A stretch of DNA of 53,675 nt from a virus. Lineage: Duplodnaviria > Caudoviricetes. Of this stretch, positions 13,026-26,772 are shown one piece after another. How positions within the stretch are numbered: the stretch's first letter is position 1; every line of letters begins with the position of its first letter. A program made the translations under genes and the position numbers. The stretch spans positions 1 through 53,675 of IMG/VR virus record IMGVR_UViG_3300009180_000052. One strand, 5' to 3'. Below the pieces are notes generated by a model that saw only the letters and a program-made list of their open reading frames with translations, was not told where the DNA came from and did no database searches.

Positions 13026-13052
13026 TTCATTAAGTTTAATTTTACTATTGTA

Positions 13053-13060
13053 CAAATATA
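13053..13060 (-). promoter_or_regulatory. Bacteroidota -7 element TATATTTG upstream of groEL
   Basis: Consensus match ~28 nt upstream of the ATG. Confidence 0.6.
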
Positions 13061-13149
13061 GTCAATGCGTGGTATATTAACCACTATTTTAGAAAAATTT
13101 TTATTAACCAAGTATATATTTACCCGTTAGGGTTAAAATGATATTCTGT

Positions 13150-13480
13150 GTTATGTCGGTGTCTATGTCGATATTTCACACATAAATGTCGGTTTATGAC
13201 GATTTTATGTCGGTTTAAAAAAAAACGACATTGACTTAAGTTAATTAGTACCAATGAGTTACACAGTTATCAGCATCTAAATGCCGATAATGCGGAAAAT
13301 TTTCCTATACTTCTATCTATATATTACTACTCTTCTTATTATTTTTATTACTCTATAATCTATTTAAAATCGACATTTTCGACATTAAAATAATAAAGTA
13401 TTAATAATCAATAAGTTAAAAAAATAAAATCGACATAAAATCGACATAAAAACTATACTAAAATGTCGATATTGACATTA
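13150..13480. repeat. CGACAT/ATGTCG iteron-like cluster with AT-rich core and IHF-consensus site; candidate origin or packaging locus
   Basis: ATGTCG at 13153, 13165, 13186, 13207, 13463; CGACAT at 13226, 13371, 13380, 13431, 13442; AATCAATAAGTTA (WATCAANNNNTTR) at 13406-13418. Confidence 0.65.
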
Positions 13481-13486
13481 ATGGGC

Positions 13487-13518
13487 AAAAAGAAACCCAA
13501 CACGCTAATGTTGGGTCT
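13487..13518 (-). terminator. Intrinsic terminator after the 76-aa gene
   Basis: Minus strand GACCCAACAT-TAGC-GTGTTGGGTT followed by TCTTTTT. Confidence 0.65.
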
Positions 13519-13548
13519 GTCAAATGATACTATCCTAAGAGGGGTTCT

Positions 13549-13779
13549 TTAATCCATCTCAGGACCTTCCATCATCTCAGAACGAATGTTACCCAAGTAA
13601 ACAGCCTCAGCCATACGACTTACCTTCTCTGCATTATGCATAGCCTTCTTAACCTGTGCTGCCTTTTGGATTCCTGTCATACTGTTAGGACGATTGTTAA
13701 TCAACATACCATCCTCGATAGTTAAACCGGGACCGGCTTTCTTTTGCTGATAGATACTGTCTTGTAATCTAAGTTTCAT
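13549..13779 (-). CDS. Hypothetical protein
   Basis: 76-aa ORF with A-rich leader and a downstream terminator. Confidence 0.65.
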   Translation of the reverse strand: MKLRLQDSIYQQKKAGPGLTIEDGMLINNRPNSMTGIQKAAQVKKAMHNAEKVSRMAEAVYLGNIRSEMMEGPEMD

Positions 13780-13894
13780 AATAATTTTTTTTGAAGTTTG
13801 AAATATTTCAAGGTAAAGATAAGAAATTTATTAGATGGTTTTAGTGTTTGGGCTATATAGCGGTTTGGCGAAGCGAGCCGTCAACCGGAAGTGA

Positions 13895-14045
13895 CATTTT
13901 TTTTAGGGGGTGGGGGTCTGCTTTCAAAATTTCCGTCCGATATTTTTGGCGTTTTGCTTAGCCACTACGTGCCTGCCTGCCTGCCTTACATTGCGTCCCT
14001 GCATCCTGCCTGCCTGCATCCCCTTTGCCATTGCCTGCATCCCCT
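13895..14045. repeat. GC-rich non-coding tract: T-run, GGGGGTGGGGG and about eight CCTGC repeats at the late/early strand switch
   Basis: Direct read; composition differs sharply from its surroundings. Confidence 0.6.
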
Positions 14046-14051
14046 TCGTTA

Positions 14052-14067
14052 GTGTCTTTGAAGACAC
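14052..14067. repeat. 16-bp palindrome GTGTCTTTGAAGACAC (copy 2)
   Basis: Direct read; intergenic, upstream of the early promoter. Confidence 0.9.
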
Positions 14068-14199
14068 AAAGCCCTAAGAAAGAAGGCTTTATCCCCCTCC
14101 TATTAATATTAAACTTAAACATAGTACGGGATTATCGAAGCCTCAAGCCCTTTATTTGCAAGGGTTTGCGTATAAACAATAAAAAAAAGCAAATATTTA

Positions 14200-14230
14200 T
14201 TTGGTGGAATGGAGTAATAAACTATATTTG
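14200..14230 (+). promoter_or_regulatory. Early promoter, Bacteroidota consensus TTTG-N19-TATATTTG
   Basis: -33 TTTG at 14200-14203, -7 TATATTTG at 14223-14230, first ATG at 14269. Confidence 0.8.
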
Positions 14231-14268
14231 TGAAAGAATTAATCAAATAACAATCAAAATTTAAACAA

Positions 14269-14907
14269 ATGAGTCAATTACTATCAATCGAAACGGCTTT
14301 CTTAAGCCTGCCTCAAGTCAAGCAGGGCTTGAATTTGAGCGAAATTAGGAGCGTGCAAAGGACTATCACCAATGCCAAAAAGAAAAAATTTGAACAAACT
14401 ATTGCCTTGAGTAAGTTAGTTACTACGGCTGTAGATTGGTTTCAGTCGGAGGAAGGGCAAAGAGTTTGCACCGATGAGGGTATTGCTTGGAGCAATGAGG
14501 AGATTGGAAAGAAAGTTTTTGGATGGCAAAAAAGTTTTTTCTACAAAGTAGTGAAAGCAGGACGCCTACAGCCCGAGGTTATCGAGTCGTTCAATGTTAA
14601 GTGCAATGAGGTTGAGGCACAAGGTGAGGAGCCAAATAGAAGCCTTGAGGGTTTATTAAAGTTTGCAAAGCAGGTGGAATCGGGCACCAATGCAGGTGGA
14701 GAAGGCGGAGACGCTGAAAGCGGAGAAAGTGAAAGTGAGCCTCAAGTTGAAACACGTGTTGAAACCATTTTAACTTTCACGTACAAAAGCGAAGGCGGAA
14801 ACGTTTCAGTGAGAATCGATGCGAACGGCTTAGTAAAAACCACAAACAGCGATGAGCAAATCAGGGAGGCAATCGCTGTATTGAATTTCAGTTTACAAAA
14901 TAGATAA
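14269..14907 (+). CDS. Early hypothetical protein (possible HTH: SNEEIGKKVFGWQKSFFYKVVKA)
   Basis: 212-aa ORF, first gene after the early promoter. Confidence 0.75.
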   Translation: MSQLLSIETAFLSLPQVKQGLNLSEIRSVQRTITNAKKKKFEQTIALSKLVTTAVDWFQSEEGQRVCTDEGIAWSNEEIGKKVFGWQKSFFYKVVKAGRLQPEVIESFNVKCNEVEAQGEEPNRSLEGLLKFAKQVESGTNAGGEGGDAESGESESEPQVETRVETILTFTYKSEGGNVSVRIDANGLVKTTNSDEQIREAIAVLNFSLQNR

Positions 14908-14926
14908 CCACTTAAAATTTACCACT

Positions 14927-15805
14927 ATGAACGGAATCATTTATTCAACAACAGGAGAAAGTCGAAGGGGTCAAGTAGCAAGCTACCACTCAAAGCCTTC
15001 GCCATTATTTTTAAACAAAAGCAAACACGCTGTCGATATTGCAGGGCTTAAGCCCGCTCAACAACGTAGTGCAATCAAGTTTGAGGGTGGTGAGTATGAA
15101 TCGAAATTCACTATCGGGTTTGAGGTTGAGAAAAACCAATTAAGCCGTAATGCGGTGAGAGAGTATGAATTATTTTGTGGGTTTGAGCGTGATGGGTCGT
15201 GCGGATACGAAGCCGTTACCCACGTGCTCCCTTTGTTACCTGCAGGTGGGTGGAGGACAAAGGTTTACGATATGATGCACAAAGCCGAAAAGATTATCGA
15301 TGATAGGTTTAGCCCTTCTGATAGGAGATGCGGTGGTCACATCACCATAGCGTGTGAGGGGATGAGTGGTGATGCCTTGAGGGATGCCATCCGTAAAAAT
15401 TGCGGTATTATCCTTGCTCTATTCAAAAAGCGTGTTACTAACAGCTATTGCAGTTACAATAGCAGGATGCAAAATTCAACCGAGTCCACCAATTGGCACC
15501 ACAAGTACCAATTAGCCCTTGTAAAGGGTGGATGCCTTGAGTTTAGGGTTCCGTCTCGCTTTCAGTCAGTTAAGCAAATGATGAGGAGATATGAGCTAAT
15601 GTATGAGATTGTGAGCTACAGCATCGCAACGCCAAATGGCTCCCACGATGGCTTACTTAAGAAAATCAAGCCTATCATTGTTTCAATGTACAACGGCAAC
15701 GAGGATGACGCCAACGAGGTGTTGAGGTTATCAAAGTTATTCAGGGCGTACATTCTGAAAGGTGAGGTGCATCAAGATATTGCACCATACGTGAGAAACT
15801 ATTAA
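14927..15805 (+). CDS. Putative amidoligase (COOH-NH2 ligase, amidoligase_2-like)
   Basis: IGFEVE, ERDGS, YEAVT, CGGHIT and LEFR motifs. Confidence 0.75.
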   Translation: MNGIIYSTTGESRRGQVASYHSKPSPLFLNKSKHAVDIAGLKPAQQRSAIKFEGGEYESKFTIGFEVEKNQLSRNAVREYELFCGFERDGSCGYEAVTHVLPLLPAGGWRTKVYDMMHKAEKIIDDRFSPSDRRCGGHITIACEGMSGDALRDAIRKNCGIILALFKKRVTNSYCSYNSRMQNSTESTNWHHKYQLALVKGGCLEFRVPSRFQSVKQMMRRYELMYEIVSYSIATPNGSHDGLLKKIKPIIVSMYNGNEDDANEVLRLSKLFRAYILKGEVHQDIAPYVRNY

Positions 15806-15813
15806 TCACGAGA

Positions 15814-15837
15814 GGGAGTGTCTTCAAAGACACTTCC
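15814..15837 (+). repeat. Palindrome copy 3 (core 15818-15833) extended into a hairpin, immediately 5' of hammerhead 1
   Basis: GGGAGTGTCTT-CA-AAGACACTTCC, with a G-U pair on the + strand. Confidence 0.9.
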
Positions 15838-15888
15838 GCTGTCGGGGGATGGTTATCCTCCCTGATGAGTTCTAAAGAACGAAACAGC
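15838..15888 (+). ncRNA. Type III hammerhead ribozyme 1 (predicted cleavage after GUC at 15843)
   Basis: Stem III GCUGU/ACAGC; stem I GGGGGA/UCCUCC with loop UGGUUA; core CUGAUGA; stem II GUUC-UAAA-GAAC; GAA. Confidence 0.92.
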
Positions 15889-15908
15889 AACCACAAAAAT
15901 GTAATCAA

Positions 15909-16037
15909 ATGGAATCAGTAATCTACAACGGGATGACATTTCCCAACGAGCAAGCCCTTCACGAGTGGCGTCTTATTTTTGAGTTCGACTACTTTATGGA
16001 GCAAGCGGAACAAAATTTATTAATCAATCAAATCTAA
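15909..16037 (+). CDS. Small hypothetical protein (42 aa)
   Basis: Read manually; AATCAA leader. Confidence 0.55.
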   Translation: MESVIYNGMTFPNEQALHEWRLIFEFDYFMEQAEQNLLINQI

Positions 16038-16041
16038 TCAA

Positions 16042-16146
16042 ATGGGACAAACAATTACAATCCTCGAGGCTGTAGCTATTAGCGTGATAACCATAGTGTT
16101 ATACGCCTTACTTAAATCTTTAATTGAACACTTTAAATCTAATTAA
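16042..16146 (+). CDS. Small membrane peptide (34 aa)
   Basis: Read manually; one hydrophobic helix, AATCAA leader. Confidence 0.5.
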   Translation: MGQTITILEAVAISVITIVLYALLKSLIEHFKSN

Positions 16147-16148
16147 CT

Positions 16149-16718
16149 ATGAGACAGATAACACGAGACATTGTGAACGCTTTTCAGAATAGCCGTTCAC
16201 TACGAATTGACAACAGCAGGACGGATGGTGAGAGTTTATGGCTATTCAACAATAAGATAGCAGAAATTAGGAGGGATGGCTTATGGATAACTAATGCAGG
16301 ATGGAAGAGCAGGACAACAAAGGAAAGATTGAACGGGCTTTCAGGTGTTCATATTCAGAGTGTCAGGGGCAATTGGTTCCTCAATGGCAGGGCTTGGGAT
16401 GGTGGATGGGTGCAGATGGATGCGTGGAATGATGGTGCTGAGTCAGTCCCTGAGGAGAATGTGCAGGAGCCTGAGTTCGATGTGACAAGCGAGTGGATGC
16501 CGGAGGGTTACAGCAAGCCGGTGTATGCGGTGTATCATACGTTATTGGAAGCAGGGTTGAGGGCGGTTGAGATATTGCTAAACGATGTCAATATACCAAC
16601 AAGAAGGGCGGAGTCAGATACTGATGGTGTGTACCGACCTAACTATTTTATAGTTGTACGTCCTGAGGATGTAGACAAGGCGGTTGAAAAGTTATCTGAG
16701 TATTATTGTCTTTCATAG
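16149..16718 (+). CDS. Hypothetical early protein
   Basis: 189-aa ORF; 'GW.SRTTKERLNGL' motif. Confidence 0.75.
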   Translation: MRQITRDIVNAFQNSRSLRIDNSRTDGESLWLFNNKIAEIRRDGLWITNAGWKSRTTKERLNGLSGVHIQSVRGNWFLNGRAWDGGWVQMDAWNDGAESVPEENVQEPEFDVTSEWMPEGYSKPVYAVYHTLLEAGLRAVEILLNDVNIPTRRAESDTDGVYRPNYFIVVRPEDVDKAVEKLSEYYCLS

Positions 16719-16737
16719 GTTCGGTAAATATACGTAT

Positions 16738-16761
16738 GGCGGTGTCTTTAAAGACACTGCC
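16738..16761 (+). repeat. Palindrome copy 4 (core 16742-16757) extended into a hairpin, 5' of hammerhead 2
   Basis: GGCGGTGTCTT-TA-AAGACACTGCC. Confidence 0.9.
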
Positions 16762-16812
16762 TCCGTCCCTAAGTGTATGCTTAGGCTGATGAGTCCCAAA
16801 GGACGAAACGGA
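16762..16812 (+). ncRNA. Type III hammerhead ribozyme 2 (predicted cleavage after GUC at 16767)
   Basis: Stem III UCCGU/ACGGA; stem I CCUAAG/CUUAGG with loop UGUAUG; CUGAUGA; stem II GUCC-CAAA-GGAC; GAA. Confidence 0.93.
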
Positions 16813-16855
16813 ATCTTAAACCGAAGGTTTTAAACCCTTCACTAAATCAAATCAA

Positions 16856-17035
16856 ATGGACACACAAGAACGGATGGAGTATTTGCAAGACGTAATCGAT
16901 AGATTATTGTACTTGAAAGGTGAGAAATTAACCGAGTATCAACACTACTTGGACGTATTGAAAGACGTTTATCCCATTGACGTAACAATGGAGAATGGTA
17001 TCAGAGTTTATCACACTAAAACCGAAAGCAAATGA
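16856..17035 (+). CDS. Small hypothetical protein (59 aa)
   Basis: Read manually; (AAATC)2 leader; ATGA overlap with the next gene. Confidence 0.6.
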   Translation: MDTQERMEYLQDVIDRLLYLKGEKLTEYQHYLDVLKDVYPIDVTMENGIRVYHTKTESK

Positions 17036-17322
17036 CAAGACCAAATGACGTGTGGGAGTGCTCAAGTTGTTCACGCCTGCAGGGACGCCACGATATGTGG
17101 TTTGAGGATAACCTTTGTGAAAGGTGCTACGAGAATCTACCGAGGTGTAGAGGATGCGAGACCAAAGACACGAAGGAGATAGTCGAAAGCAGATGTGACG
17201 CCTACGGCTACGGGACGGGAGATTGGTGCGACAAGTGTTATGACAGCGACAAGTATCCATATCGTAAGGATAGGTACTTCGACCCATCGTATGCAGGTGA
17301 GAGATTGGAGGATGATTATTGA
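17032..17322 (+). CDS. Cys-rich zinc-finger-like protein
   Basis: Four CxxC pairs. Confidence 0.65.
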   Translation: MTRPNDVWECSSCSRLQGRHDMWFEDNLCERCYENLPRCRGCETKDTKEIVESRCDAYGYGTGDWCDKCYDSDKYPYRKDRYFDPSYAGERLEDDY

Positions 17323-17342
17323 AAACTTAAATCAAATCAGAT

Positions 17343-17504
17343 ATGGAAAGCCAACACTATTTTAAAATCTATTACGCTCAGGAGTTCGTTTGGTCAGTAG
17401 TCGCCCACACAAAGTGGGAGGCTATTGACAAAGCGTTCTGCAAATTCATCGGGGATTGCCCCCATTTAGAGCGTACAAAGTTCAAGGCAAAGAAAGTTTA
17501 TTGA
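17343..17504 (+). CDS. Small hypothetical protein (53 aa)
   Basis: Read manually; AAATC leader. Confidence 0.55.
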   Translation: MESQHYFKIYYAQEFVWSVVAHTKWEAIDKAFCKFIGDCPHLERTKFKAKKVY

Positions 17505-17512
17505 AAAATAAA

Positions 17513-17544
17513 TTTGGCAATGTCTAAATTATGTCGTATCTTCG
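17513..17544 (+). promoter_or_regulatory. Probable promoter TTTG-N20-TATCTTCG
   Basis: Near-consensus Bacteroidota promoter upstream of the GATase-GGCT gene. Confidence 0.5.
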
Positions 17545-17611
17545 TTCATTATCAGTTCATTAACAAGGGTTCTATGCCTTCATAGGTATTGCCCACAAAT
17601 CAATTTAGCTT

Positions 17612-18730
17612 ATGTGTGTAATCATTATCAAGCAGACAGGGAAAAAAGTTCCTCAGGAGGTTGCAAAGACCTCAGCACGAATCAATCCCCACGGATTGGG
17701 TATTGTATGGCTCGACACTTTCGAGGTAACGTATCACAAATCAGCAGAATACAAAGTATTGGAGACCGAAAGACCATTCATTGCTCACTTTAGATATGCG
17801 ACTATTGGTGCAGTCAACAAAGAGAACACGCATCCATTCAGATGCGGGAGCAACAAACAAGAGTGGCTTATGATGAACGGCACTATCAGAGCACTTGGTA
17901 ACTTCAAGAAGAGTGACTCAAAAGTATTAGCAGAGAACTTGGGCGAGATACCACGCCACAAATGGAAGAAGGAGTTAGAGCAGTATGAGTGCAGGTTCGT
18001 GTCAGTTAACACGCACAGCAGGACATACCAAATTTACAATAAAGAGTTGTGGACTCAAAGAGATGGCGTATGGTATAGCAAGGACAATGTCATTGAGGAC
18101 AATTTAATCGCTGTCTACGGCACGTTAAAGAAAGGGTACAGCAATTACCATAGCTATCTTAGTTCCTCCAAATTTATAGCCAAAGGCAACACGAAGAGCA
18201 AGTATCCGCTTGTCATCAGTGGACTACCTTACTTGATTGAGAAGAGTGGACAAGGTCATCACGTGGAGGTGGACATATTCAAAGTCAGTTCAGGTGTATT
18301 TGCTCAGTTAGATAGGTTGGAGGGTCATCCTGATTGGTACCGGAGGAAGCAGGTTGATGTGACTACTAAGAACGGAGTGCTTAAGTGTTGGATATACTTC
18401 AACATACGTGAGACAGCAGACGGCAAAGAGCATCATAAGACATACACGCAGAAGGCAAAGCCTTATAGTTTTTGGGAGAAGGAGGATGAGAAAGAGAGTG
18501 AAAAGTATGTAAGCATATTCAGTAACTACGGGTACGAGGAGCCGAAGAGTGTGTTCTTAACAAGTATATTGGATGAGGAGTGTGATGATTGTGAGTTTGA
18601 CATAGAGAATGAGAAGCCTATATGTGTCAATTGCTTTCACGATTTAGAGCACGATATGTTCGCAAATTATCATTGTAGTGGTTGCGATGAGTGGTTCACT
18701 GAGTCTGAGGTTTTACGATTCCGACCTTAG
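17612..18730 (+). CDS. Class II glutamine amidotransferase fused to gamma-glutamylcyclotransferase (AIG2-like) and a C-terminal Zn ribbon
   Basis: N-terminal Cys (MCVIII), NPHGLG, AHFRYAT, NTHPF, NGT; GGCT motifs VYGTLKKG..N and LDRLEG; C-terminal CxxC...CxxC. Confidence 0.85.
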   Translation: MCVIIIKQTGKKVPQEVAKTSARINPHGLGIVWLDTFEVTYHKSAEYKVLETERPFIAHFRYATIGAVNKENTHPFRCGSNKQEWLMMNGTIRALGNFKKSDSKVLAENLGEIPRHKWKKELEQYECRFVSVNTHSRTYQIYNKELWTQRDGVWYSKDNVIEDNLIAVYGTLKKGYSNYHSYLSSSKFIAKGNTKSKYPLVISGLPYLIEKSGQGHHVEVDIFKVSSGVFAQLDRLEGHPDWYRRKQVDVTTKNGVLKCWIYFNIRETADGKEHHKTYTQKAKPYSFWEKEDEKESEKYVSIFSNYGYEEPKSVFLTSILDEECDDCEFDIENEKPICVNCFHDLEHDMFANYHCSGCDEWFTESEVLRFRP

Positions 18731-18740
18731 TCTTAGTCTT

Positions 18741-18768
18741 AGGGTGGTGTCTTCAAAGACACTGCCCT
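18741..18768 (+). repeat. Palindrome copy 5 (core 18747-18762) extended into a hairpin, 5' of hammerhead 3
   Basis: AGGGTGGTGTCTT-CA-AAGACACTGCCCT with G-U pairs. Confidence 0.9.
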
Positions 18769-18819
18769 CCGTATCGGGATGAGTTGTCCCGACTGATGAT
18801 TCTGAAAAGATGAAACGGA
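18768..18819 (+). ncRNA. Type III hammerhead ribozyme 3, variant (GUA cleavage after 18773; U-U at the base of stem II)
   Basis: Stem III UCCGU/ACGGA; stem I UCGGGA/UCCCGA with loop UGAGUUG; CUGAUGA; U-UCU-GAAA-AGA-U; GAA. Confidence 0.82.
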
Positions 18820-18857
18820 AAATTTATTAAATTTAACAAACATTAAAACCACTAAAA

Positions 18858-19082
18858 ATGCAAGTATTTAAAATCAACACGACTGCTTGGGCGGAAGAAG
18901 ACTTCTACCTGATGACAACCTTAGACGAGGAGCAAATCAAAAAAATCATTCAGCCAATGGTCGACTACGAAAGGGCGAATGACATTATGTATGACAATGA
19001 CGACTACATATTTGAGTTGCAAAATGCTTATCCTAAAGCAACCATTGAGATGTATCAGGACTTTGATGTTATTTCATTTTAA
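18858..19082 (+). CDS. Hypothetical protein
   Basis: ORF track; acidic, 74 aa. Confidence 0.7.
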   Translation: MQVFKINTTAWAEEDFYLMTTLDEEQIKKIIQPMVDYERANDIMYDNDDYIFELQNAYPKATIEMYQDFDVISF

Positions 19083-19092
19083 ACCAAGTAAG

Positions 19093-19260
19093 ATGAGAAA
19101 TAATATAAAAGTTTTTACGGGACTTATCTACTTTATTGGGTCGATGCTATATTTTTTTATAGTATCGGTACCGGTAGCTGTATTGGTGTACTTAGCTGTA
19201 CTTATAATTTATTTAATTAATCAAATCAAATCAATATGTCAAAAAATCACTACGAGATGA
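19093..19260 (+). CDS. Small membrane protein
   Basis: Start revised to MRNNIKVF; long hydrophobic stretch. Confidence 0.5.
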   Translation: MRNNIKVFTGLIYFIGSMLYFFIVSVPVAVLVYLAVLIIYLINQIKSICQKITTR

Positions 19261-19550
19261 CACAGAGTGCTACGGCACAAATCGAAATCGACTTTCTTCG
19301 GGATGAGGTAAGGCGATTAAGGATACAATCGAAAGATGTTTCAGTGGCAAGGGAATTGCTCAAGCGTAATGGCTATTACGTTAACAACCTATGGACTACG
19401 GGAGATGTCACTCAGAACTACGATTGTAGTGATGAGGTGGCATACGAGGTGCTTGATAGAGCAATGCACAACGATGCTACAATGGAGCAAATCTTTCTTG
19501 CCATTGACGATGTGTGTGACGATTTAGAAATCAAAAAAATTAAAGACTAA
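19236..19550 (+). CDS. Hypothetical protein
   Basis: ORF track; (AAATC)n leader. Confidence 0.7.
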   Translation: MSKNHYEMTQSATAQIEIDFLRDEVRRLRIQSKDVSVARELLKRNGYYVNNLWTTGDVTQNYDCSDEVAYEVLDRAMHNDATMEQIFLAIDDVCDDLEIKKIKD

Positions 19551-19738
19551 TGGAAAGTAAAAAAATGCCTTTAGCGGTTAAAAAGCAAGTTGATGTGTAC
19601 TTTCTTATGCTCTATGAGTTTATGGGAGACTTTCAGGACAAGCTAACAAAGGAGTACGAGGCTATTCCAAAAAGAAAAAAGAAATTCAGCTATGAACAAT
19701 TCGTAGTTGCTGTATTCACTAATTTAATATTAAAGTAA
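19550..19738 (+). CDS. Hypothetical protein
   Basis: ORF track; TAATG overlap with the previous gene. Confidence 0.65.
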   Translation: MESKKMPLAVKKQVDVYFLMLYEFMGDFQDKLTKEYEAIPKRKKKFSYEQFVVAVFTNLILK

Positions 19739-19739
19739 A

Positions 19740-19961
19740 ATGGAAAATGTAATTAATGGCACGCCAAAAGCCACGTTCTACCTGAACGAATTGGCATCAG
19801 AGATAGCAGACTTTGTTATCGAAAAAAAATATGAGAATACCGGAGTTGTAACTATGGTAGAGAAAAGGGGTGTAATGGTTTATAGTGGGCATATTCAGTA
19901 TGAGTATGACACAATCTATGACGAAGTATTTCAATATCTAACTAATAATCAAATCAAATAA
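19740..19961 (+). CDS. Hypothetical protein
   Basis: ORF track; tight packing. Confidence 0.65.
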   Translation: MENVINGTPKATFYLNELASEIADFVIEKKYENTGVVTMVEKRGVMVYSGHIQYEYDTIYDEVFQYLTNNQIK

Positions 19962-19962
19962 A

Positions 19963-20121
19963 ATGGAAAATCAAAAAACAACAATCGAAGTAAACGTATG
20001 TTTTTACGTAGATGAGGTAACGGGTAAAAAAGTTTATGACTTTGAAGAGATGGCTGATGAGTTTGAGCAGAAGCTATCCGAGTTAGATGAAAGCGTAGTA
20101 GTAATGGTATCAATTCAATAA
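19963..20121 (+). CDS. Small acidic protein (52 aa)
   Basis: Read manually: MENQKTTIEVNVCFYVDEVTGKKVYDFEEMADEFEQKL... Confidence 0.6.
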   Translation: MENQKTTIEVNVCFYVDEVTGKKVYDFEEMADEFEQKLSELDESVVVMVSIQ

Positions 20122-20137
20122 AATCAAATCAAATAAA

Positions 20138-20533
20138 ATGGAAATCAAAATCATTCAAGGAGTAAAGCGAGAAGTCTTAGAAGATATTTTCGTAACAGCA
20201 TTAGAGGGAGGCAGTAACTATTGGTACTACCTACCTGAGGAGTCAATCAAAGCAATCCGTAAGGCAGTTCCTAAAGAGGAAGACCCGTACCTAAGCACAG
20301 CCATTTTAAAGGCTATTTTAGACCACGATGTAAAGGTGGCTATCAATGATGCCGAAGAGGAAGATGAGGTCATAGGCGTCATTACACGTGGCACTATGCA
20401 AGCACGATTGCAGTTGCTTGCAGAGAGCGAAAATAGATGGGCGTTGGAAAGGCATATAAAGGAAGAGGGTGATGGCGACTCAGCAGATGTGGTGTTCCAA
20501 TACCTAACTATGGGTGAGGTAGTTTATGGGTAA
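20138..20533 (+). CDS. Hypothetical phage protein (TALEGGSNYW...QY...GEVVYG motif)
   Basis: ORF track; (AAATC)n leader. Confidence 0.75.
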   Translation: MEIKIIQGVKREVLEDIFVTALEGGSNYWYYLPEESIKAIRKAVPKEEDPYLSTAILKAILDHDVKVAINDAEEEDEVIGVITRGTMQARLQLLAESENRWALERHIKEEGDGDSADVVFQYLTMGEVVYG

Positions 20534-20560
20534 TTAATTAAAAATTTAAATTTAAAAAAA

Positions 20561-20782
20561 ATGGAGAAGTTTATTGACAGCGGAAGGTTTATACCAAGAG
20601 TGGTGTTCCTTGAAAAGAATCCAAATGAGCAGTTGCTTGACGATTGCACTGATGTGGTTCAGTATAGTGGAGGTGCATACGTACAAGTTTTAAAGTCAGG
20701 TGTATTTTATTTAGATGAGAGTTTCAGCAGTCGCTCGCTTGATGAAGTCGAGGTGAAATTGTTGGAAAAAATTAACAAATAA
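20561..20782 (+). CDS. Hypothetical protein
   Basis: ORF track. Confidence 0.65.
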   Translation: MEKFIDSGRFIPRVVFLEKNPNEQLLDDCTDVVQYSGGAYVQVLKSGVFYLDESFSSRSLDEVEVKLLEKINK

Positions 20783-20838
20783 ATGAACGATATGTGAACA
20801 TATTGTCGTATGTTTGTTGTCTTAAATTAAATTATATT

Positions 20839-21141
20839 ATGAAGCACGATGTTTTCAATCAGTACGTAGAAAGGGTGTCAGACTTGTTTGGAATAAGCAA
20901 GGATGAAATCTTTTCTAAGTCGAAGAAGAGGGAGTTGGTAGATGCGAGGCATCTTGTGTACTACCTATGTTCAAAGAGACCTATGCAAGTTACCTATATC
21001 CAAAAGTATATGAACGAAGCGGGGTATGACATTAAGCACTCATCCATTATCCACGGAATCTCTGCGGTTGAGCAGAAGATTGCAGAAGACAAGGACTATG
21101 TCTCAGTGGTGAAGGAGGTGGAGAGGGCGGTTTTTATTTAG
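20839..21141 (+). CDS. DnaA C-terminal (domain IV)-like HTH protein
   Basis: FGISKDEIFSKSKKRELVDARHLVYYLC...HSSIIHGI resembles DnaA domain IV. Start revised to MKHDVF, downstream of TATGTTTG (20809-20816). Confidence 0.7.
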   Translation: MKHDVFNQYVERVSDLFGISKDEIFSKSKKRELVDARHLVYYLCSKRPMQVTYIQKYMNEAGYDIKHSSIIHGISAVEQKIAEDKDYVSVVKEVERAVFI

Positions 21142-21209
21142 TTCAATCAATCAAATCAAATACTTGCAGACTTTAGTCTGAAAGAACTTAATCAATCAAA
21201 TCAAATCAA

Positions 21210-21854
21210 ATGGAAAAGAAACTTCCGGTTTTTGAAAGGCTATCCGCCATCAACGTCAATGAGCACGTTGAAAAGAAAAGCAATCTAACTTATTTATCTT
21301 GGGCTTGGGCTTGGTCAAAAACAAAGACCGAGTGTCCTGATGCCACGTACAAAATCTTAGAGACTGAGTATGACGAGGCTCTTGGATTTATGTGCCACAC
21401 TAATGTAACCATCGAGGGCGAGACGCTTGAGATGTGGTTGCCGGTGATGGATGGTGCGAACAAGTCAATGAAGAAGATAGCGTATAGTTATAGCTCACGC
21501 TATGGCGATAAGCAAGTTGATTCTGCGACTACGTTCGACATTAACAAAACCATTATGCGTTGCTTAGTTAAGAACTTAGCGATGTTTGGGTTGGGGATTT
21601 ATATCTATGCCGGTGAGGATTTACCTGAGGGAGAGACACACTATAAGGCTGAGGCTCCTAAGAAGACAGCAGTTGCAACAGCAGATGGGTTGACTGACTT
21701 AAAGAAGGGTACTGACAATTGGGATGCGGTAATCAAGTACGTAACAGCTAACAAGTCTTTAGGTATTGAGAAGATTGGAGCACAAATTACACGCAAGTAC
21801 AAGGTGAGCCCTACATTAAAGAAAGAAATTGCTAACCTAATAACAGCATCGTAA
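21210..21854 (+). CDS. Sak/DUF1071 ssDNA-annealing protein (Rad52-like)
   Basis: VEKK.NLTYLSWAWAW, MWLPVMD, DINKTIMRCLVKNLAMFGLG.YIYAGEDLP. Confidence 0.88.
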   Translation: MEKKLPVFERLSAINVNEHVEKKSNLTYLSWAWAWSKTKTECPDATYKILETEYDEALGFMCHTNVTIEGETLEMWLPVMDGANKSMKKIAYSYSSRYGDKQVDSATTFDINKTIMRCLVKNLAMFGLGIYIYAGEDLPEGETHYKAEAPKKTAVATADGLTDLKKGTDNWDAVIKYVTANKSLGIEKIGAQITRKYKVSPTLKKEIANLITAS

Positions 21855-22600
21855 TGGAAAAGCAAGTATCAGAAATTATAACGTTGCTCAGAGATGACAA
21901 CGAGTATTACAATGGGTATGGCAAGAACTATTTATCTAATTCAGATATTGGTGTGTTACTTAGCAATCCTCAGGACTTCGGTAAGGAGCGAGAAGACAAC
22001 AAAGCATTTATGGATGGCAGATACTTTCATCAGCTAATATTGGAGCCTGAGAAGGCAAAGGGTATGCCATCAGTAGACGTAAGTACACGTACTACTAAAG
22101 AGTATAAGGCATTCTGCGAAACCAATAACTTACCATTTTGTATGTTAAAGAAGGAGCAAGACGAGATTCAAAACCTTGTTAGTATTATCAACGGGAACAT
22201 TGCGTTCTATGATGAGATTTATAAAGCAGGTAATGAGTATGAGACTCCGGCAGTTGCAGAGATTCAAGGTATGATGTGGAAGGGGAAGGCTGACATTGTC
22301 ACTGACAATGCTGTGATTGACCTTAAGACTACGAGTGACATTCATAAGTTTAAGTACACAGCAAAGCAGTACAATTATGATTCTCAGTGCTATATTTATC
22401 AGGAGTTATTTGGTAAGCCATTGGTGTTCTACGTTATTGACAAAGGCACCGGAGTACTTGGTATTTTTAGACCAACAGAAGACTTTGTAAAAGGTGGCGA
22501 AATCAAAGTAGGCAAAGCAATTGAGGTGTATAACAAATACTTTAGTTCTAAGCCAACGGATGATATAGTGAACTACTACATTGACGAATATTTATTATAA
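21854..22600 (+). CDS. RecE/DUF3799-like PD-(D/E)XK exonuclease
   Basis: LSNSDI, G..FH.LILEP, KGKAD, IDLKTT, Y.YD.Q..IY. Confidence 0.8.
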   Translation: MEKQVSEIITLLRDDNEYYNGYGKNYLSNSDIGVLLSNPQDFGKEREDNKAFMDGRYFHQLILEPEKAKGMPSVDVSTRTTKEYKAFCETNNLPFCMLKKEQDEIQNLVSIINGNIAFYDEIYKAGNEYETPAVAEIQGMMWKGKADIVTDNAVIDLKTTSDIHKFKYTAKQYNYDSQCYIYQELFGKPLVFYVIDKGTGVLGIFRPTEDFVKGGEIKVGKAIEVYNKYFSSKPTDDIVNYYIDEYLL

Positions 22601-22620
22601 TATTGCATCCCCCGAAGCAA

Positions 22621-22636
22621 GTGTCTTCAAAGACAC
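22621..22636. repeat. Palindrome copy 6, 4 nt upstream of the tRNA-like element
   Basis: GTGTCTTCAAAGACAC. Confidence 0.9.
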
Positions 22637-22640
22637 AGGG

Positions 22641-22749
22641 AGTCAGGTGGCGGAGTGGTAGACGCAACCGTTAACGGATAAGTTCGTGCAGACGTGTACC
22701 TACGGTGTTATATCCTAAACAAATACAGGTTCGATTCCTGTCCTGACTA
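22641..22749 (+). tRNA. tRNA-like element with intact acceptor, D and T arms but no canonical anticodon arm
   Basis: Acceptor AGTCAGG/CCTGACT plus A; D arm GCG-GAGTGGTAGA-CGC; T arm ACAGG-TTCGATT-CCTGT; 58 nt between the D and T arms with no 7-nt anticodon loop; no CCA directly after the discriminator. Confidence 0.75.
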
Positions 22750-22825
22750 CAACCAATTGTTAACTTAGCCTCAGAGTTTAATGATTGGTATAAATAGACT
22801 GAGGCAAACAATAAATTTAAACACT

Positions 22826-23125
22826 ATGGCACAAGATGAAAAAATCTTTGCAGACGGATTCTCATTTAAGAGAAACGAAAAAGCCCCCGACTTTGTAGTT
22901 GGGCGATTATCAATCAAGGCAGAAGATGGAGTAGCCTTCATCAGACAGCACGAGAAAGGTGGGTGGGTTAACCTCAACATTAAGACTGCACGCAGTGGCA
23001 ATCATTACGTTGAGTTGGATACCTACGAGCCAACACAAAGTGGGGCGAAGCCTCAGTCAGAACCTAAACCAAAGGCACAGCCTAAGGTAGAGGATGCCGA
23101 AGATGGCGATGAACTTCCATTTTAG
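22826..23125 (+). CDS. Probable single-stranded DNA-binding protein
   Basis: Beta-rich small domain, P/K/Q linker and acidic tail ending DGDELPF; start revised to MAQDEK. Confidence 0.7.
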   Translation: MAQDEKIFADGFSFKRNEKAPDFVVGRLSIKAEDGVAFIRQHEKGGWVNLNIKTARSGNHYVELDTYEPTQSGAKPQSEPKPKAQPKVEDAEDGDELPF

Positions 23126-23153
23126 AATTGACACCCATTTAGAAACAAGGATT

Positions 23154-23180
23154 GGGGGAGTGAAAACTTCCCCTTTTTTT
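23154..23180 (+). terminator. Intrinsic terminator
   Basis: GGGGGAGT-GAAA-ACTTCCCC followed by T7. Confidence 0.85.
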
Positions 23181-23194
23181 GCCCCTAATCCGTG

Positions 23195-23352
23195 ACGAAA
23201 ATGTCGATGTGTTTTCCCTATATTCTCTATAGGGGTTTTTATATTCTTTATTATTTTTTTAAATTAATAATTGAACTTAAAATCGACATAATCGACATAA
23301 GTATTAGTAATCAGATAGTTAGATAGTTTAAAACGACATAAAACCGACATAA
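23195..23352. repeat. Second CGACAT iteron-like cluster, upstream of the primase-helicase
   Basis: ATGTCG at 23201; CGACAT at 23284, 23293, 23334, 23345; AT-rich core; IHF-like AATCAGATAGTTA. Confidence 0.65.
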
Positions 23353-23353
23353 G

Positions 23354-25777
23354 ATGGTACATAATGTGACGATATTCCAAAATATTAGAGACACTGACAC
23401 TCCATTCTTCCGAGACGTACACGTTATACTCGAGAGAATCAAGGAGGGAGCCGGTGCTACTAAGGACTTGGTGAAAAGAATAAGGTTGGAGAAGAGTAAA
23501 CCTGAGAGACAAGAATTAAAGAAAGGACTTCCGGCAATATGTTTCAGTGGTACATTTAATAAAAGAACAGACGTATCCATAATACAGCATTCAGGATTGA
23601 TATGTTTAGACTTCGATGGCTATACCAAGCAGAAAGAGTTATTGCACGACAAGGAGAACTTATCAAAGAACAAGTATGTGTTCTCAGTATTCATTTCCCC
23701 TTCGGGTAATGGTTTAAAAGTGTTGGTCAAGATTCCGGCAGATGCAGAGAATCACACGATGTACTTCAATAGCTTAGAAAAGTACTTTAATTCGGCTTAT
23801 TTCGACAAGACGAGCAAGAACCTCAGCCGAGTATGTTACGAGTCGTATGACCCTCTAATTGCGATTAATGAGAATAGCAGTATTTGGGATGTTATCGAGG
23901 AGCCTGAGTACACTGAGGTGAGTAGAACAAGAGACAAGGCAACCATACCCATCACGGATGAGAATAAGATTGTGGAGATACTTGTAAAGTGGTGGGAGAA
24001 AAAGTATCCTATGCACGAGGGACAACGTAATCAGAATACGTATGTGCTTGCGATGGCATTTAATGACTTCGGTATAAACAAGAGCCTTGCATCTTACGTT
24101 ATTAATCAGTTTGCTACGGAGGACTTTACACTAAGAGAGATTGGTGTAACCATTGACTCTGCATATAGGCATACAACAAACTTTGGTACTAAGTACTACG
24201 AGGATGAGGAGCGTATTAATACCATTAAAGCAAAGCTGAGGAGAGGTGTATCAAAAAAAGAAATTCGCATCCAATTGCAAGACTCCAACTTGGAGAGCGA
24301 GACTATTGAATCGGTGCTTAATAAGGTAGAGGAAGAGAATGAGATGCAAACCTTTTGGGACAGAAACGATAGAGGAGTTATAAAGGTGGTACACATACAG
24401 CTAAAGCAGTTTTTAGAAGACAATGGCTTTTACAAGTATTGCCCTGAGGGTGGTAAGAACTACATCTTTGTGAAGGTGACTAATAATTTAATTGACCACA
24501 CGTCTGACAAAGAGATTAAAGACTTTGTGCTTACGCACTTGTTGGAGTTAGATGACATTGGTGTATATAATTACTTCGCTGACAACACAAGATTTTTTAG
24601 AGAAGAGTTCTTGTCAATGCTGTCAACGATTGAGATTTATTTTATTGCTGATAGCAAGTACGCATCATACTTGTACTACAAGAATTGTGCTGTGAAGATT
24701 ACCAAGGATGGGGTAACAACGCTTGACTACTTGGACTTGGGAGGATACGTGTGGAAAGACCACGTGATAGATAGGAACTTTAACATTTGTAGTGTGACTG
24801 AGAGGTGTGACTTCAAAAAGTTTGTTAACAATATCAATGGAGGAGATGAGCCTCGAGTTAAAACAATGGAGAGTACGCTTGGATTTTTAATGCACGGGTA
24901 CAAGAACCTATCATTTTGTCCGGCTGTGATTCTGAACGATGAGGTAATTAGCGACAATCCTGAGGGTGGAACGGGTAAGGGACTACTTATGAACGCACTT
25001 AGTAAGATGAAGAAATTGGTTGTAATCGATGGCAAGTCATTTGCTTTTGAGCGTAGCTTCGCTTATCAGTTGGTGTCAGCAGATACGCAGATACTTTGCT
25101 TCGATGATGTGAGAAAACATTTTGACTTTGAGCGTTTGTTTTCTGCAGTTACTGAGGGGTTAACTTTAGAGAAAAAGAATAAGGATGCAATAAAAATTCC
25201 ATTTAGTCGTTCTCCTAAGATTGCTATTACAACGAACTATGCAATTAAGGGTGCCGGCAATTCATTTGCAAGAAGAAAGTGGGAGTTGGAGTTGCATCAG
25301 TATTATACCAAAGAGTTTACGCCACTTGATGAGTTTGGTAAGTTGATGTTTGGCGATTGGAACGATGAAGATTGGTGTGAGTTTGATAACTATATGATTG
25401 GTTGTTTAACGAACTATATCAAGACCGGACTTGTCAAGAGTAAGTTTGTGAACTTAAAGATTCGTCAGTTGTCAGCAGAGACTTGCCACGAGTTTATTGA
25501 GTGGTGTGGACTTGTTGATACGCATCAGAACAGAGAGGTGATGTTACAGACTGACACGAGACTTTATAAAAACGAGTTGTACTCAAACTTTGTGGATGAG
25601 TATCCTGACTACGGACCTCGAGGTAGGATGAGCGTGAGTCGAACCAAGTTCTATAAGTGGTTGATGGCTTATGGCGTTTACAAGGAGGGAGTGATGCCAC
25701 AGGAGGATAGAGACCAACAGGGTAGATGGATAATTATTAAAAGCAAACCTGAGGGGCTTGAAGAAGCACCTTTTTAA
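23354..25777 (+). CDS. Primase-helicase (VirE-N/BT4734-like primase, PriCT, SF3-like helicase)
   Basis: LPAICFSG.F, LICLDFD, FISPSGNGLKV; EGQRNQ (PriCT); Walker A GGTGKG, FDD, ITTN. Confidence 0.85.
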   Translation: MVHNVTIFQNIRDTDTPFFRDVHVILERIKEGAGATKDLVKRIRLEKSKPERQELKKGLPAICFSGTFNKRTDVSIIQHSGLICLDFDGYTKQKELLHDKENLSKNKYVFSVFISPSGNGLKVLVKIPADAENHTMYFNSLEKYFNSAYFDKTSKNLSRVCYESYDPLIAINENSSIWDVIEEPEYTEVSRTRDKATIPITDENKIVEILVKWWEKKYPMHEGQRNQNTYVLAMAFNDFGINKSLASYVINQFATEDFTLREIGVTIDSAYRHTTNFGTKYYEDEERINTIKAKLRRGVSKKEIRIQLQDSNLESETIESVLNKVEEENEMQTFWDRNDRGVIKVVHIQLKQFLEDNGFYKYCPEGGKNYIFVKVTNNLIDHTSDKEIKDFVLTHLLELDDIGVYNYFADNTRFFREEFLSMLSTIEIYFIADSKYASYLYYKNCAVKITKDGVTTLDYLDLGGYVWKDHVIDRNFNICSVTERCDFKKFVNNINGGDEPRVKTMESTLGFLMHGYKNLSFCPAVILNDEVISDNPEGGTGKGLLMNALSKMKKLVVIDGKSFAFERSFAYQLVSADTQILCFDDVRKHFDFERLFSAVTEGLTLEKKNKDAIKIPFSRSPKIAITTNYAIKGAGNSFARRKWELELHQYYTKEFTPLDEFGKLMFGDWNDEDWCEFDNYMIGCLTNYIKTGLVKSKFVNLKIRQLSAETCHEFIEWCGLVDTHQNREVMLQTDTRLYKNELYSNFVDEYPDYGPRGRMSVSRTKFYKWLMAYGVYKEGVMPQEDRDQQGRWIIIKSKPEGLEEAPF

Positions 25778-25788
25778 ATTAAATCAAT

Positions 25789-25926
25789 ATGAAAAACTTT
25801 ATTAAAAAATTAAGATGTAAATTATTTCACAAGCATTATTGGGTATATAACAGGAATCCTTGGGGACAAAGATTCTATCATTGTTCAAAATGTGACCAAG
25901 CATTTATAATAAAGTCTAAAAAATAA
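25789..25926 (+). CDS. Small Cys/His protein (45 aa)
   Basis: Read manually: MKNFIKKLRCKLFHKHYW...HCSKC. Confidence 0.55.
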   Translation: MKNFIKKLRCKLFHKHYWVYNRNPWGQRFYHCSKCDQAFIIKSKK

Positions 25927-25929
25927 ACT

Positions 25930-26163
25930 ATGAGAACAGCAATGCAAGAAGTCTTGTTATTGGTAGAACAAATGTACAAAGACGCCAAATCAATAATGGT
26001 TGAATCTGCAATGAATGATGTAATAAACATAATAACGCAGGAAGGATTGCCAAAAGAAAAAGAGCAGATAATGAATGCTTTTAGTAGAGGCTTAGGTACA
26101 GAATTAAGTGATTGGGAAAATTCACAACAATATTATGATAGAACCTATAACCAAAACAAATAA
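25930..26163 (+). CDS. Hypothetical cassette gene 1 (M.TAMQ...KEKEQI...NQNK)
   Basis: ORF track; paralogous to the next gene. Confidence 0.7.
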   Translation: MRTAMQEVLLLVEQMYKDAKSIMVESAMNDVINIITQEGLPKEKEQIMNAFSRGLGTELSDWENSQQYYDRTYNQNK

Positions 26164-26166
26164 CTT

Positions 26167-26532
26167 ATGAAAACAGCAATGCAACTAATGTTAGAAGATT
26201 TAGAATTAAGATATAAAGTACTATCTAATGCAGAAATGCTACAAGCGTGTGGTGCAATAGAAGGAACTATTGACTATGCTAAATCTTTAATTATAAAAGA
26301 AAAAGAGCAGATAATAGATGCTATGGAAAAAACTGCAATGTATGTATCAGCGGCTTCATTAGATAAAGAAATAGGTAAAATGAATTTTGAAGATTTTTAC
26401 AACCAAACCTATAACCAAAAAATACCTGAACTTTTATATAAAGATGGTACTCCAATGAGAAAGGTTAAGCTAGGTAAAGAAGCTGAAGAATTACTAGATG
26501 AAGCAACTAAAAGATTTAACCAAAACAAATAA
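26167..26532 (+). CDS. Hypothetical cassette gene 2
   Basis: MKTAMQ...KEKEQII...NQNK. Confidence 0.7.
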   Translation: MKTAMQLMLEDLELRYKVLSNAEMLQACGAIEGTIDYAKSLIIKEKEQIIDAMEKTAMYVSAASLDKEIGKMNFEDFYNQTYNQKIPELLYKDGTPMRKVKLGKEAEELLDEATKRFNQNK

Positions 26533-26535
26533 CCT

Positions 26536-26772
26536 ATGAAACAATGTACAGAAGAACAAGTAAATCGCTTAAAATATTGGAAGAACAATGCTGAAGAGGA
26601 TTATCTAACAACACCAATTAGTGTGTTAAAATATATTTCTGAACTTGAAAAATTAACACCAATAGAACTACCAAGTGATGAGGAGATAAGAATACAATTA
26701 CAATTCGCAACTAATGATTTTTATTGGGGTGCTAAATGGATGAAACAACATATACTTAACCAAAACAAATAA
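26536..26772 (+). CDS. Hypothetical cassette gene 3
   Basis: Ends NQNK; LPSDEEI...GAKWM motif. Confidence 0.65.
   Translation: MKQCTEEQVNRLKYWKNNAEEDYLTTPISVLKYISELEKLTPIELPSDEEIRIQLQFATNDFYWGAKWMKQHILNQNK

Follow-up and report, generated by a model that had tools for sequence, protein, structure and literature searches.

Here we describe an uncultured Bacteroidota phage in which three hammerhead ribozymes and one tRNA-like element, lying in intergenic gaps of a rightward gene block, each stand behind a copy of the same 16-nt palindromic hairpin, GTGTCTTYRAAGACAC. The window, i.e. the whole stretch of DNA analysed, is the 53,675-bp record IMGVR_UViG_3300009180_000052 of IMG/VR. The hairpin was also found with hammerheads of related phages, including some in which the ribozyme is permuted and uses the hairpin as one of its own stems. 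We favour, with moderate confidence, the reading that these cassettes constitute a self-encoded system of mRNA segmentation, in which predicted cleavage leaves upstream mRNA pieces that end in a hairpin. A preliminary description, made from the letters of the window alone, had proposed a programmed segmentation of this kind, and its individual claims are taken up below together with the results that bear on them.

Three hammerhead ribozymes behind a repeated hairpin

Nine exact copies of GTGTCTTYRAAGACAC are present in the window, starting at positions 12346, 14052, 15818, 16742, 18747, 22621, 27950, 35882 and 50098, as compared to 0.05 expected, and none of 100 shuffled sequences reached nine. 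The four intergenic sites at which a stop codon, the palindrome and a cleavage device had been described in succession were all found, at 15818, 16742, 18747 and 22621. They lie 12, 23, 16 and 20 nt past the stop codons of the open reading frames (ORFs) 14927-15805, 16149-16718, 17612-18730 and 21854-22600, respectively; the device is a type III hammerhead at the first three and a tRNA-like element at the fourth. The palindrome as such is not tied to cleavage devices: five of the nine copies have none, one of them being terminator-like and three lying inside ORFs.

At these four sites the flanks lengthen the palindrome on the plus strand. Extended hairpin 1 (15814-15837), which starts 8 nt 3' of the stop of ORF 14927-15805, has a 4-bp flank GGGA/UUCC with one G·U pair around the palindrome at 15818-15833, giving a 10-bp stem with a UCAA loop. 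In extended hairpin 2 (16738-16761) the minimum-energy fold pairs the flank GGCG/UGCC around 16742-16757, and in extended hairpin 3 (18742-18767) the flank GGGUG/UGCCC, with two G·U pairs, surrounds 18747-18762 to give 11 bp in total. Hairpin 4 (22611-22640) encloses the palindrome at 22621-22636 by an outer CCC/GGG pairing across an internal loop, a layout that recurs in relatives.

The three type III hammerheads, at 15838-15888, 16762-16812 and 18768-18819 on the plus strand (hammerheads 1, 2 and 3), carry the core CUGAUGA and GAAA along with the triplets GUC, GUC and GUA, respectively. The cuts are predicted at 15843/15844, 16767/16768 and 18773/18774, i.e. 10, 10 and 11 nt past the palindrome, and these are the same scissile bonds as had been assigned by eye. 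Minimum-energy folds, together with covariation in two alignments of relatives (A1 and A2, below), gave three helices around the core, of which stems I and II end in loops and stem III is open. In the folds of all three cassettes the 10-11 bp hairpin abuts a canonical hammerhead, and stem III of hammerhead 1 begins right after the hairpin with zero unpaired bases between them. The Rfam model Hammerhead_3 scored hammerhead 1 at 45.9 bits (E 1.3e-7) and hammerhead 3 at 35.6 bits (E 1e-4), and hammerhead 2 was picked up by our regex scan. We also built a covariance model, R1, on 84 hammerheads found in relatives; neither the window nor the four relatives closest to it contributed to the model. 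When the window was searched with R1 with the filters off, exactly three matches were obtained, namely hammerheads 1 (64.7 bits), 2 (70.8 bits, E 1.3e-16) and 3 (68.5 bits), with E values of about 1e-15, and the next best score was 12.7 bits. Because the core and three stems are present, R1 matches only these places and the stems covary, the three elements are, judged by their sequences, genuine hammerheads.

The first pair of stem II (positions 10.1/11.1) is typically G-C in hammerheads. It is G-C in hammerheads 1 and 2 and U·U in hammerhead 3, whose combination of U·U with GUA was also found in 24 of the 84 hammerheads of relatives; this pair is non-canonical in 30 of the 84. In alignment A2, G-C occurred with a cleaved C in 42 cases and A in 11, U·U with A in 24 and U in 1, and A·A with U in 4 and C in 1. 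This association may reflect hammerhead lineages or structural coupling.

Covariation and hairpin linkage in related phages

Homologues of three proteins of the window (the exonuclease, the helicase and the GGACT protein) served to fetch 240 loci of relatives, which belong to a large clade of roughly 60-kb phages. The regex scan of loci L005-L285 yielded 127 type III hammerheads in 70 loci, 98 of which were unique. In alignment A1 (18 sequences), 96.4% of the cells were paired, a share that is partly built in by scans that demanded paired stems; both sides had changed in 14 of the 22 pairs, including 6 of 6 in stem I, and none of 500 shuffles was as high. The covariation score of alignment A2 (84 sequences, with the closest relatives L206, L208, L209 and L274 as well as L243 and the minus-strand hammerheads of L088 left out) was 0.652 as compared to 0.217 in shuffles. 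In the window, loop 1 starts with UG and loop 2 has the form NAAA, and both features hardly vary among the 84 relatives. Covariation and conserved loops in the 84 relatives bore out the observation, originally made on three ribozymes, that the stems vary yet pair while the core and both loops are kept.

Linkage of palindrome and ribozyme in homologous genomes had been named beforehand as a point on which the proposal could fail. A hairpin of at least 6 bp ending at most 8 nt upstream was found for 90 of the 98 unique type III hammerheads, as against 302 of 2000 random positions in the same loci; with at least 8 bp, the counts were 76 of 98 and 66 of 2000. Among the eight hammerheads devoid of a qualifying hairpin, three have the palindrome with an insert, two have an imperfect hairpin and three (L254, L256 and L267) have none. 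A hairpin of the form GTSTC-N6-GASAC precedes 78 of the 98, and most of the others have unrelated G+C-rich hairpins. It directly adjoins stem III in 69 of the 78; all intervening bases are paired with the 5' flank, so that the two helices can stack. The predicted cut falls 5-14 nt past the palindrome in 75 of the 78, most commonly 10-11 nt. As far as the sequences go, the coupling of palindrome and hammerhead therefore holds widely across homologous genomes.

A permuted type I layout

A further scan revealed 15 unique type I hammerheads in relatives, in which a hairpin closes stem III: the 16-nt palindromic hairpin in 11 and other hairpins in 4. Two of the former (L229:6-65 and L239:1306-1369) use the exact palindrome of the window as stem III and nine use the variant of their own genome. 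In L243 and L252, a type I hammerhead with the genome's own palindrome as stem III occupies the site matching the third hammerhead of the window, behind the GGACT gene. All 204 cells of the type I alignment were paired (100%), to which the caveat of preselected pairing applies, and 12 of its 14 pairs had changed on both sides. Rfam gave only a weak match to the L243 example and called it type III.

The cut lies 2 nt past the hairpin in type I and about 6 nt past it in type III. After the predicted cut, the ribozyme body would go with the downstream fragment in type III and with the upstream fragment in type I. Mainly because the cut is just 3' of the hairpin in both layouts, a hairpin-ended upstream RNA is preferred, over a structured 5' end downstream, as the product that matters. 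The end products originally proposed were both of these; the common 3' hairpin tag is kept in the two layouts, and the structured downstream 5' end is absent in type I.

The hairpin is probably selected as RNA and is uniform within a genome

At flank positions 1-4 of the 78 hammerhead-linked hairpins we counted 207 Watson-Crick pairs, 76 sense-strand G·U pairs, 5 A·C pairs (G·U pairs if read from the other strand) and 24 other mismatches. The sense-strand G-U pairs described earlier for the window are matched by a strong bias in relatives (76 vs 5). The inner six bases were scored on 287 unique palindromes of relatives, dropping those with a strand confidence under 0.75: on the sense strand, TTCAAA was found 99 times vs 16 for TTTGAA outside long ORFs, and 49 vs 4 times inside them. 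Locus L088 has, before a hammerhead, a core variant with a U·G pair. These three features, i.e. G·U pairs on the sense strand, strand-biased inner bases and the U·G core variant, fit a hairpin selected as a structure in the transcript, although a single-stranded DNA form of the same strand may be conceivable, since the directions of genes and of replication may coincide.

Whole-record scans revealed one hairpin type per genome. The GTCTC type made up 10 of 10, 7 of 7, 11 of 11 and 12 of 12 copies in four genomes, and the GTGTC type 12 of 12, 17 of 17, 4 of 4 and 2 of 2 copies in others. A third variant is present in MW202828.1 in 14 identical copies, many of which begin 3-4 nt past a stop and lie about 20 nt before the next start, and more distant relatives have still other repeated arms. 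The uniformity extends to coding sequence. The copy at 27950-27965 (+) lies in the helicase ORF 26776-28227, where it encodes VFEDT. Conservation of this copy was judged on 80 orthologues whose retrieval did not depend on the palindrome, loci collected for holding it being set aside. A palindrome of the variant of the genome in question stands at the same codons in 33 of the 80, and some relatives keep the peptide with other codons, so that the palindrome is gone. In L329 and L347, GTCTC...GAGAC at this site turns VFEDT into LFEET and LFSET, and one genome has the same inner bases in its helicase copy as in its other copies. Since a merely protective hairpin needs no uniform sequence, a sequence-specific reader, presumably a protein, or active homogenisation probably acts on the 16-mer.

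A further possibility, which we put forward tentatively and hold to be less than an even bet, is that the hairpin is a genome-specific address tag for a dedicated trans-acting factor that co-evolves with all of the 9-17 copies, the ribozymes and the tRNA-like element serving to place the tag at mRNA 3' ends. Keeping the tag inside coding sequence would cost amino-acid changes. With only 3-20 nt between the upstream stop codon and the hairpin, cleavage could under this proposal also couple to translation termination. If true, it would amount to a self-encoded, histone-mRNA-like 3'-end formation with post-transcriptional control. Among the 28 ORFs scanned with Pfam (18 also with PHROGs), no RNA ligase, kinase/phosphatase, RNase or RNA-binding domain was detected. 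A virion RNA polymerase was considered and rejected: the 2802-, 1630- and 1708-aa ORFs lack a D[FYVIL]DxD motif, and PHROGs and Pfam returned only 'virion structural', 'tail' or unknown for them.

A tRNA-like element at the fourth site

As described earlier, a tRNA-like element begins 4 nt past the palindrome. It spans 22641-22749 (+) and scored 42.1 bits with the Rfam tRNA model (gathering score 29), with acceptor, D and T arms in cloverleaf order and 30 extra bases in the anticodon loop. ARAGORN found no tRNA in the window; on the loci of 25 relatives it gave no gene in 18, and its 7 calls were inconsistent or undefined, one of them elsewhere in the locus. The family in relatives comprises 25 unique elements of 72-131 nt, whose acceptor stem, D arm and T arm are shared and whose middle part varies freely. 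Eleven of the 25 lie at most 5 nt from the palindrome (L170 and L191, with truncated matches, were excluded from the comparison of sites), and several others sit, as judged by eye, behind a large hairpin with a U run. In L162, L153, L148 and L161, two or three elements of the one family stand in tandem with differing middle parts.

We rejected a true tRNA for 22641-22749 on account of the missing normal 7-nt anticodon loop, the negative ARAGORN result and the variable length of the middle part. By its sequence, the element is a tRNA-shaped signal and not a decoder. Cutting by RNase P at 22640/22641, and perhaps by RNase Z on the 3' flank, would be expected by analogy, because it is established for such tRNA-shaped folds. 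In metatranscriptome X2, the bin 22559-22875 had a summed depth of 796.6 as compared to 97.5 and 69.1 in its neighbours; this would fit a stable tRNA-like RNA, but the sum mixes contigs of many relatives, perhaps including true tRNAs, and was not counted as support.

The element is followed by a conserved structured leader at 22750-22825, in which GCCUCAG (22768-22774) and CUGAGGC (22799-22805) form a stem, with a possible outer pairing of ACCAAU and AUUGGU. Most relatives keep the leader, inspection by eye showing compensatory changes, and it may be a translational operator. The SSB-like gene behind it truly starts at ATG 22826 (MAQDEK... in relatives) and not at 22781 as in the ORF list.

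Proposed self-encoded segmentation of the mRNA and its alternatives

The steps of the favoured reading would be as follows. The rightward block of replication and recombination genes (14.2-29.4 kb) would be transcribed as a long RNA. The 10-11 bp hairpin that follows an ORF would fold and stack coaxially on the hammerhead's short stem III, and the hammerhead would then cleave itself. The upstream mRNA would thereby end in the hairpin, about 6 nt and a 2',3'-cyclic phosphate, a poor substrate for 3' exonucleases, and the downstream piece would begin with a 5'-OH. At the fourth site, RNase P would cut at the 5' end of the tRNA-like fold. The outcome would be mRNA segments with separate lifetimes, made by the ribozymes without a host nuclease.

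Several observations weigh against segmentation. Four metatranscriptomes contain relatives (shares 0.07-0.18) as assembled contigs, which cannot show transcript ends, and among these X1 record 1 (14040-16006) and X3 record 16 (15090-16228, 16362-16684 and 16967-19087) run across predicted cut sites; such contigs may be DNA carry-over or uncleaved RNA. Palindromes without a device, some of them within genes, are in the majority in the window, and uniformity of the 16-mer goes beyond the needs of plain protection. In the Rfam search that had been suggested, two of the three sites matched Hammerhead_3, both below the gathering score of 48.5 bits, which is a curated cut-off and not a structural feature; hammerhead 2 was not called type III and gave a partial Hammerhead_1 match of 21 bits. 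Hammerhead 3 may be slow owing to its U·U first stem II pair. The share of paired cells in the alignments (96-98%) is partly due to the scans themselves, which did not build in the variety of pair types or the loops. Behind the GGACT gene, the regex scan gave no type III hammerhead in 45 of 78 relatives (the partial matches L276 and L281 excluded), though at least 4 of the 45 resemble scan misses and 2 are type I. Lastly, R1 found no hammerhead in positions 33731-60850 (27 kb) of MW202828.1, despite its 14 palindrome copies.

Other explanations account for part of the data. The hairpin could be mainly a folding clamp or insulator that stacks on the 4-5 bp stem III and blocks mispairing with the upstream ORF, in which case 3' protection would be incidental and the other copies would have unrelated jobs. 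The spacerless junction in 69 of 78 cases, the abutting structures in three of three minimum-energy folds, the identity of hairpin and stem III in type I relatives and the ability of unrelated hairpins to stand in for the palindrome are all as a clamp would have them; yet the same hairpin occurs without a ribozyme in front of the tRNA-like element, ahead of plain leaders rich in A and in a terminator-like form, and a clamp has no need of a sequence fixed across the genome. We consider this account unlikely. That the palindrome works on DNA, whether bound as an operator by a dimeric phage DNA-binding protein, recognised as a hairpin promoter by a phage RNA polymerase or used as a single-strand hairpin in replication, with ribozymes nearby only because both share intergenic gaps, strikes us as quite improbable. 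A DNA-binding partner would explain why the 16-mer is uniform within genomes and different between them (the GTCTC and GTGTC types, and the 14 identical copies of MW202828.1), and why one copy lies in a divergent control region and others inside ORFs, and ORF 20794-21141 encodes a small DnaA C-terminal helix-turn-helix protein; if gene and replication direction coincide, the strand bias too would leave room for a single-stranded DNA role. Against it stand the excess of sense-strand G·U pairs, the unrelated hairpins that fill the same place before hammerheads, the G·U core variant of L088 and the type I layout, where the hairpin is stem III and hence must be transcribed and folded there. The DFDxD motif of a crAss-type virion polymerase was likewise not found in the three largest ORFs.

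There is also, in our view, only a slim chance that the hairpin-ribozyme units are chiefly recombination junctions, i.e. portable borders of gene cassettes akin to the PeSLs of T4-like phages, which persist by gene shuffling and not by a benefit to expression. The genes between modules do vary among relatives, with whole cassettes swapped, the phage encodes a Sak annealase and an exonuclease, and in contigs of relatives from RNA libraries the gene content changes at module borders, where a palindrome or the end of a hammerhead lies (17557 or 17559 to 18747, 16813 to 19217, 18821 to 19218, and 14069 to 16763); PeSLs, in the part of the report available to us, are said to mediate such shuffling (PMC4122927). 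Recombination, however, requires sequence identity and not a catalytic core, covarying stems or conserved loops. The two roles are compatible, and the breakpoints fit recombination as a side role of the cassettes. Finally, it is hardly conceivable that the motifs are inactive relics or chance matches. Rfam scores under the gathering score and the U·U pair of hammerhead 3 could be read in that way, but the independent model gave three matches with E about 1e-15 and at most 12.7 bits in the rest of the 53.7 kb, covariation in the 84 relatives is extensive and the position relative to the hairpin is fixed. Segmentation that leaves hairpin-ended upstream pieces is the reading that we retain.

Palindrome copies without a cleavage device

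Besides the helicase copy, four palindromes have no device. One of these, at 50093-50118 (minus strand), with a 5-bp flank, 11 pairs and 7 T, lies behind the virion structural gene 50137-51555 and has the hairpin and U run of an intrinsic terminator. The palindromes at 15818, 16742, 18747, 22621 and 27950 do not have this combination, and standard terminators were ruled out for the hairpins of the early block as the T tract is missing. The copy at 14052-14067, which has no assigned strand, is in the divergent region between the leftward and rightward blocks, and relatives have a copy at the corresponding place, as judged by eye. Just to its left, at 13970-14050, is a repeat tract rich in TGCC/CCTGCATCC (TRF period 4, 11.8 copies, score 36), which may be an origin or control region. 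On the minus strand, the copy at 35882-35897 encodes VSSKT within the 2802-aa ORF and has UUCAAA as its inner six bases on the sense strand, and the copy at 12346-12361 in the GroEL gene encodes CVFEDT within the peptide ECVFEDT. Among 15 GroEL orthologues examined, one had the exact palindrome and one a one-base variant; as the palindrome is rare in orthologues, we judged the GroEL copy to be a probable coding by-product of a conserved peptide and not a working element.

Genome layout, relatives and host

The 53,675-bp record is estimated to be 89% complete. Genes run leftward from 1 to 14,000, rightward from about 14,200 to 29,400, and leftward again to the end. Pfam and PHROGs assign to the rightward block a Sak annealase, a PDDEXK exonuclease, a primase-helicase, an SNF2-type helicase, a DnaA C-terminal helix-turn-helix protein, two more nucleases and a GATase/GGACT protein, and to the flanking blocks GroEL and virion genes. 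The rightward block can reasonably be called an 'early operon', with its timing and co-transcription taken as assumptions. A terminator-like hairpin with a T run at 23154-23173 (+), behind the SSB-like gene, suggests that the block may be more than one transcript.

The genes parted by the hammerheads (14927-15805, 16149-16718 and 17612-18730) resemble a peptide-modification set, the likeness resting on a weak Amidoligase_2 lead, Kyano_Gp96 and a fusion of GATase with gamma-glutamyl cyclotransferase. The protein-atlas neighbours of the first two ORFs of the block are all viral and 'hypothetical', and the Amidoligase_2 lead for one of these two comes from 12% of one cluster. The starts downstream of the hammerheads are preceded by A-rich, unstructured leaders with AAAUCA repeats and without a Shine-Dalgarno sequence (e.g. 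16835-16858), in relatives as well. In a distant relative, L272:601-635 matched the Rfam DUF805b RNA motif at 39.0 bits (gathering score 35.6).

The closest named record, by primase, is the uncultured podovirus MW202828.1 (60.8 kb, 76% identity in the primase), and farther primase matches are from phages of Flavobacterium, Polaribacter, Cellulophaga and Maribacter. When bacterial and archaeal genomes were scanned with a composite pattern of palindrome and hammerhead core, the sole match was a 56-kb contig of a Cytophagales metagenome-assembled genome, which by its sequence hints at the host phylum and nothing finer. A palindrome scan of IMG/VR returned, among the matches listed, several contigs with 3-14 copies; many of the single-copy matches could be due to chance, as estimated from the size of the collection.

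Comparison with known systems

Segmentation of phage operons by several hammerheads has been proposed before. In the sections available to us, Perreault et al. (2011) described several hammerheads flanking prophage genes, proposed the processing of long transcripts and found three arrays to cleave in vitro (PMC3088659). Those arrays share with the present ones the placing of several hammerheads between genes of one phage transcription unit; the same sections make no mention of an obligatory upstream hairpin, a permuted type I/III pair or a tRNA-like alternative, though the supplementary alignments might show hairpins. Our literature search found no report of hairpin coupling, of the permuted pair or of the tRNA-like alternative, with the same proviso for the supplementary alignments of PMC3088659, and no paper tying hammerheads to Flavobacterium, Cellulophaga or crAss-like phages. 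Hairpin coupling and the permuted form thus appear to be new. According to the part consulted of a 2019 review, the purpose of bacterial and phage hammerheads still needs to be defined (PMC6765202). With a spacerless tie to a hairpin, two permuted layouts and a predicted cut just 3' of it, the present clade is a clean natural case in which to ask this, and a vague idea of operon processing becomes the specific prediction that each upstream mRNA piece carries a defined hairpin and a cyclic phosphate at its 3' end. The uniformity of the hairpin across each genome, including the protein-changing helicase copy, points to a sequence-specific reader, and the cassettes could serve as compact natural parts for splitting operons in Bacteroidota.

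Among phage systems, the HDV-like theta ribozymes near phage tRNAs also tie a small self-cleaving ribozyme to a second RNA element and are thought to shape RNA ends; as far as the portion seen goes, they are of a different class, their partners are true suppressor tRNAs and their purpose is tRNA maturation (PMC10879173). The PeSLs likewise are a short conserved intergenic stem-loop motif in many copies among early genes, at borders of gene swaps (PMC4122927 and PMC2839356, each consulted in part). In contrast, a PeSL is described there as a terminator with a promoter and without a ribozyme; here a ribozyme is present, and a sigma-70-type promoter scan was at chance level (42 sites vs 42.4 expected from shuffles, Bacteroidota promoters being outside the model of the scan).

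The multi-copy, genome-specific palindromic hairpins behind stop codons bring to mind bacterial REP/RAYT elements, and REPs affect mRNA stability at the 3' end. Unlike a transposing element, the helicase copy evolves in place within an orthologous codon block, and no Y1 transposase was found among the 28 ORFs scanned with Pfam. A tRNA-shaped RNase P signal within a longer transcript is also seen in mitochondrial tRNA punctuation and at the tRNA-like 3' ends of long non-coding RNAs, whereas here it occupies one site in the window, has no usable anticodon arm and takes a slot otherwise held by ribozymes. The 3' stem-loop of animal histone mRNAs is a short stem of fixed sequence with a 4-nt loop, cut a few bases downstream and bound by a dedicated protein; the likeness is an analogy only, since in the phage a ribozyme would make the cut and a binding protein is hypothetical. 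The RNase III sites of T7 early mRNA are similar in outcome: cuts between the genes of a polycistronic early transcript leave each upstream piece with a stabilising 3' stem-loop. A T7-type site consists of about two turns of double-stranded RNA and is cut by host RNase III; in contrast to these longer structures and their host enzyme, the present cassettes have a stem of 10-11 bp and would be cut by the RNA itself or, at the tRNA-like element, presumably by RNase P.

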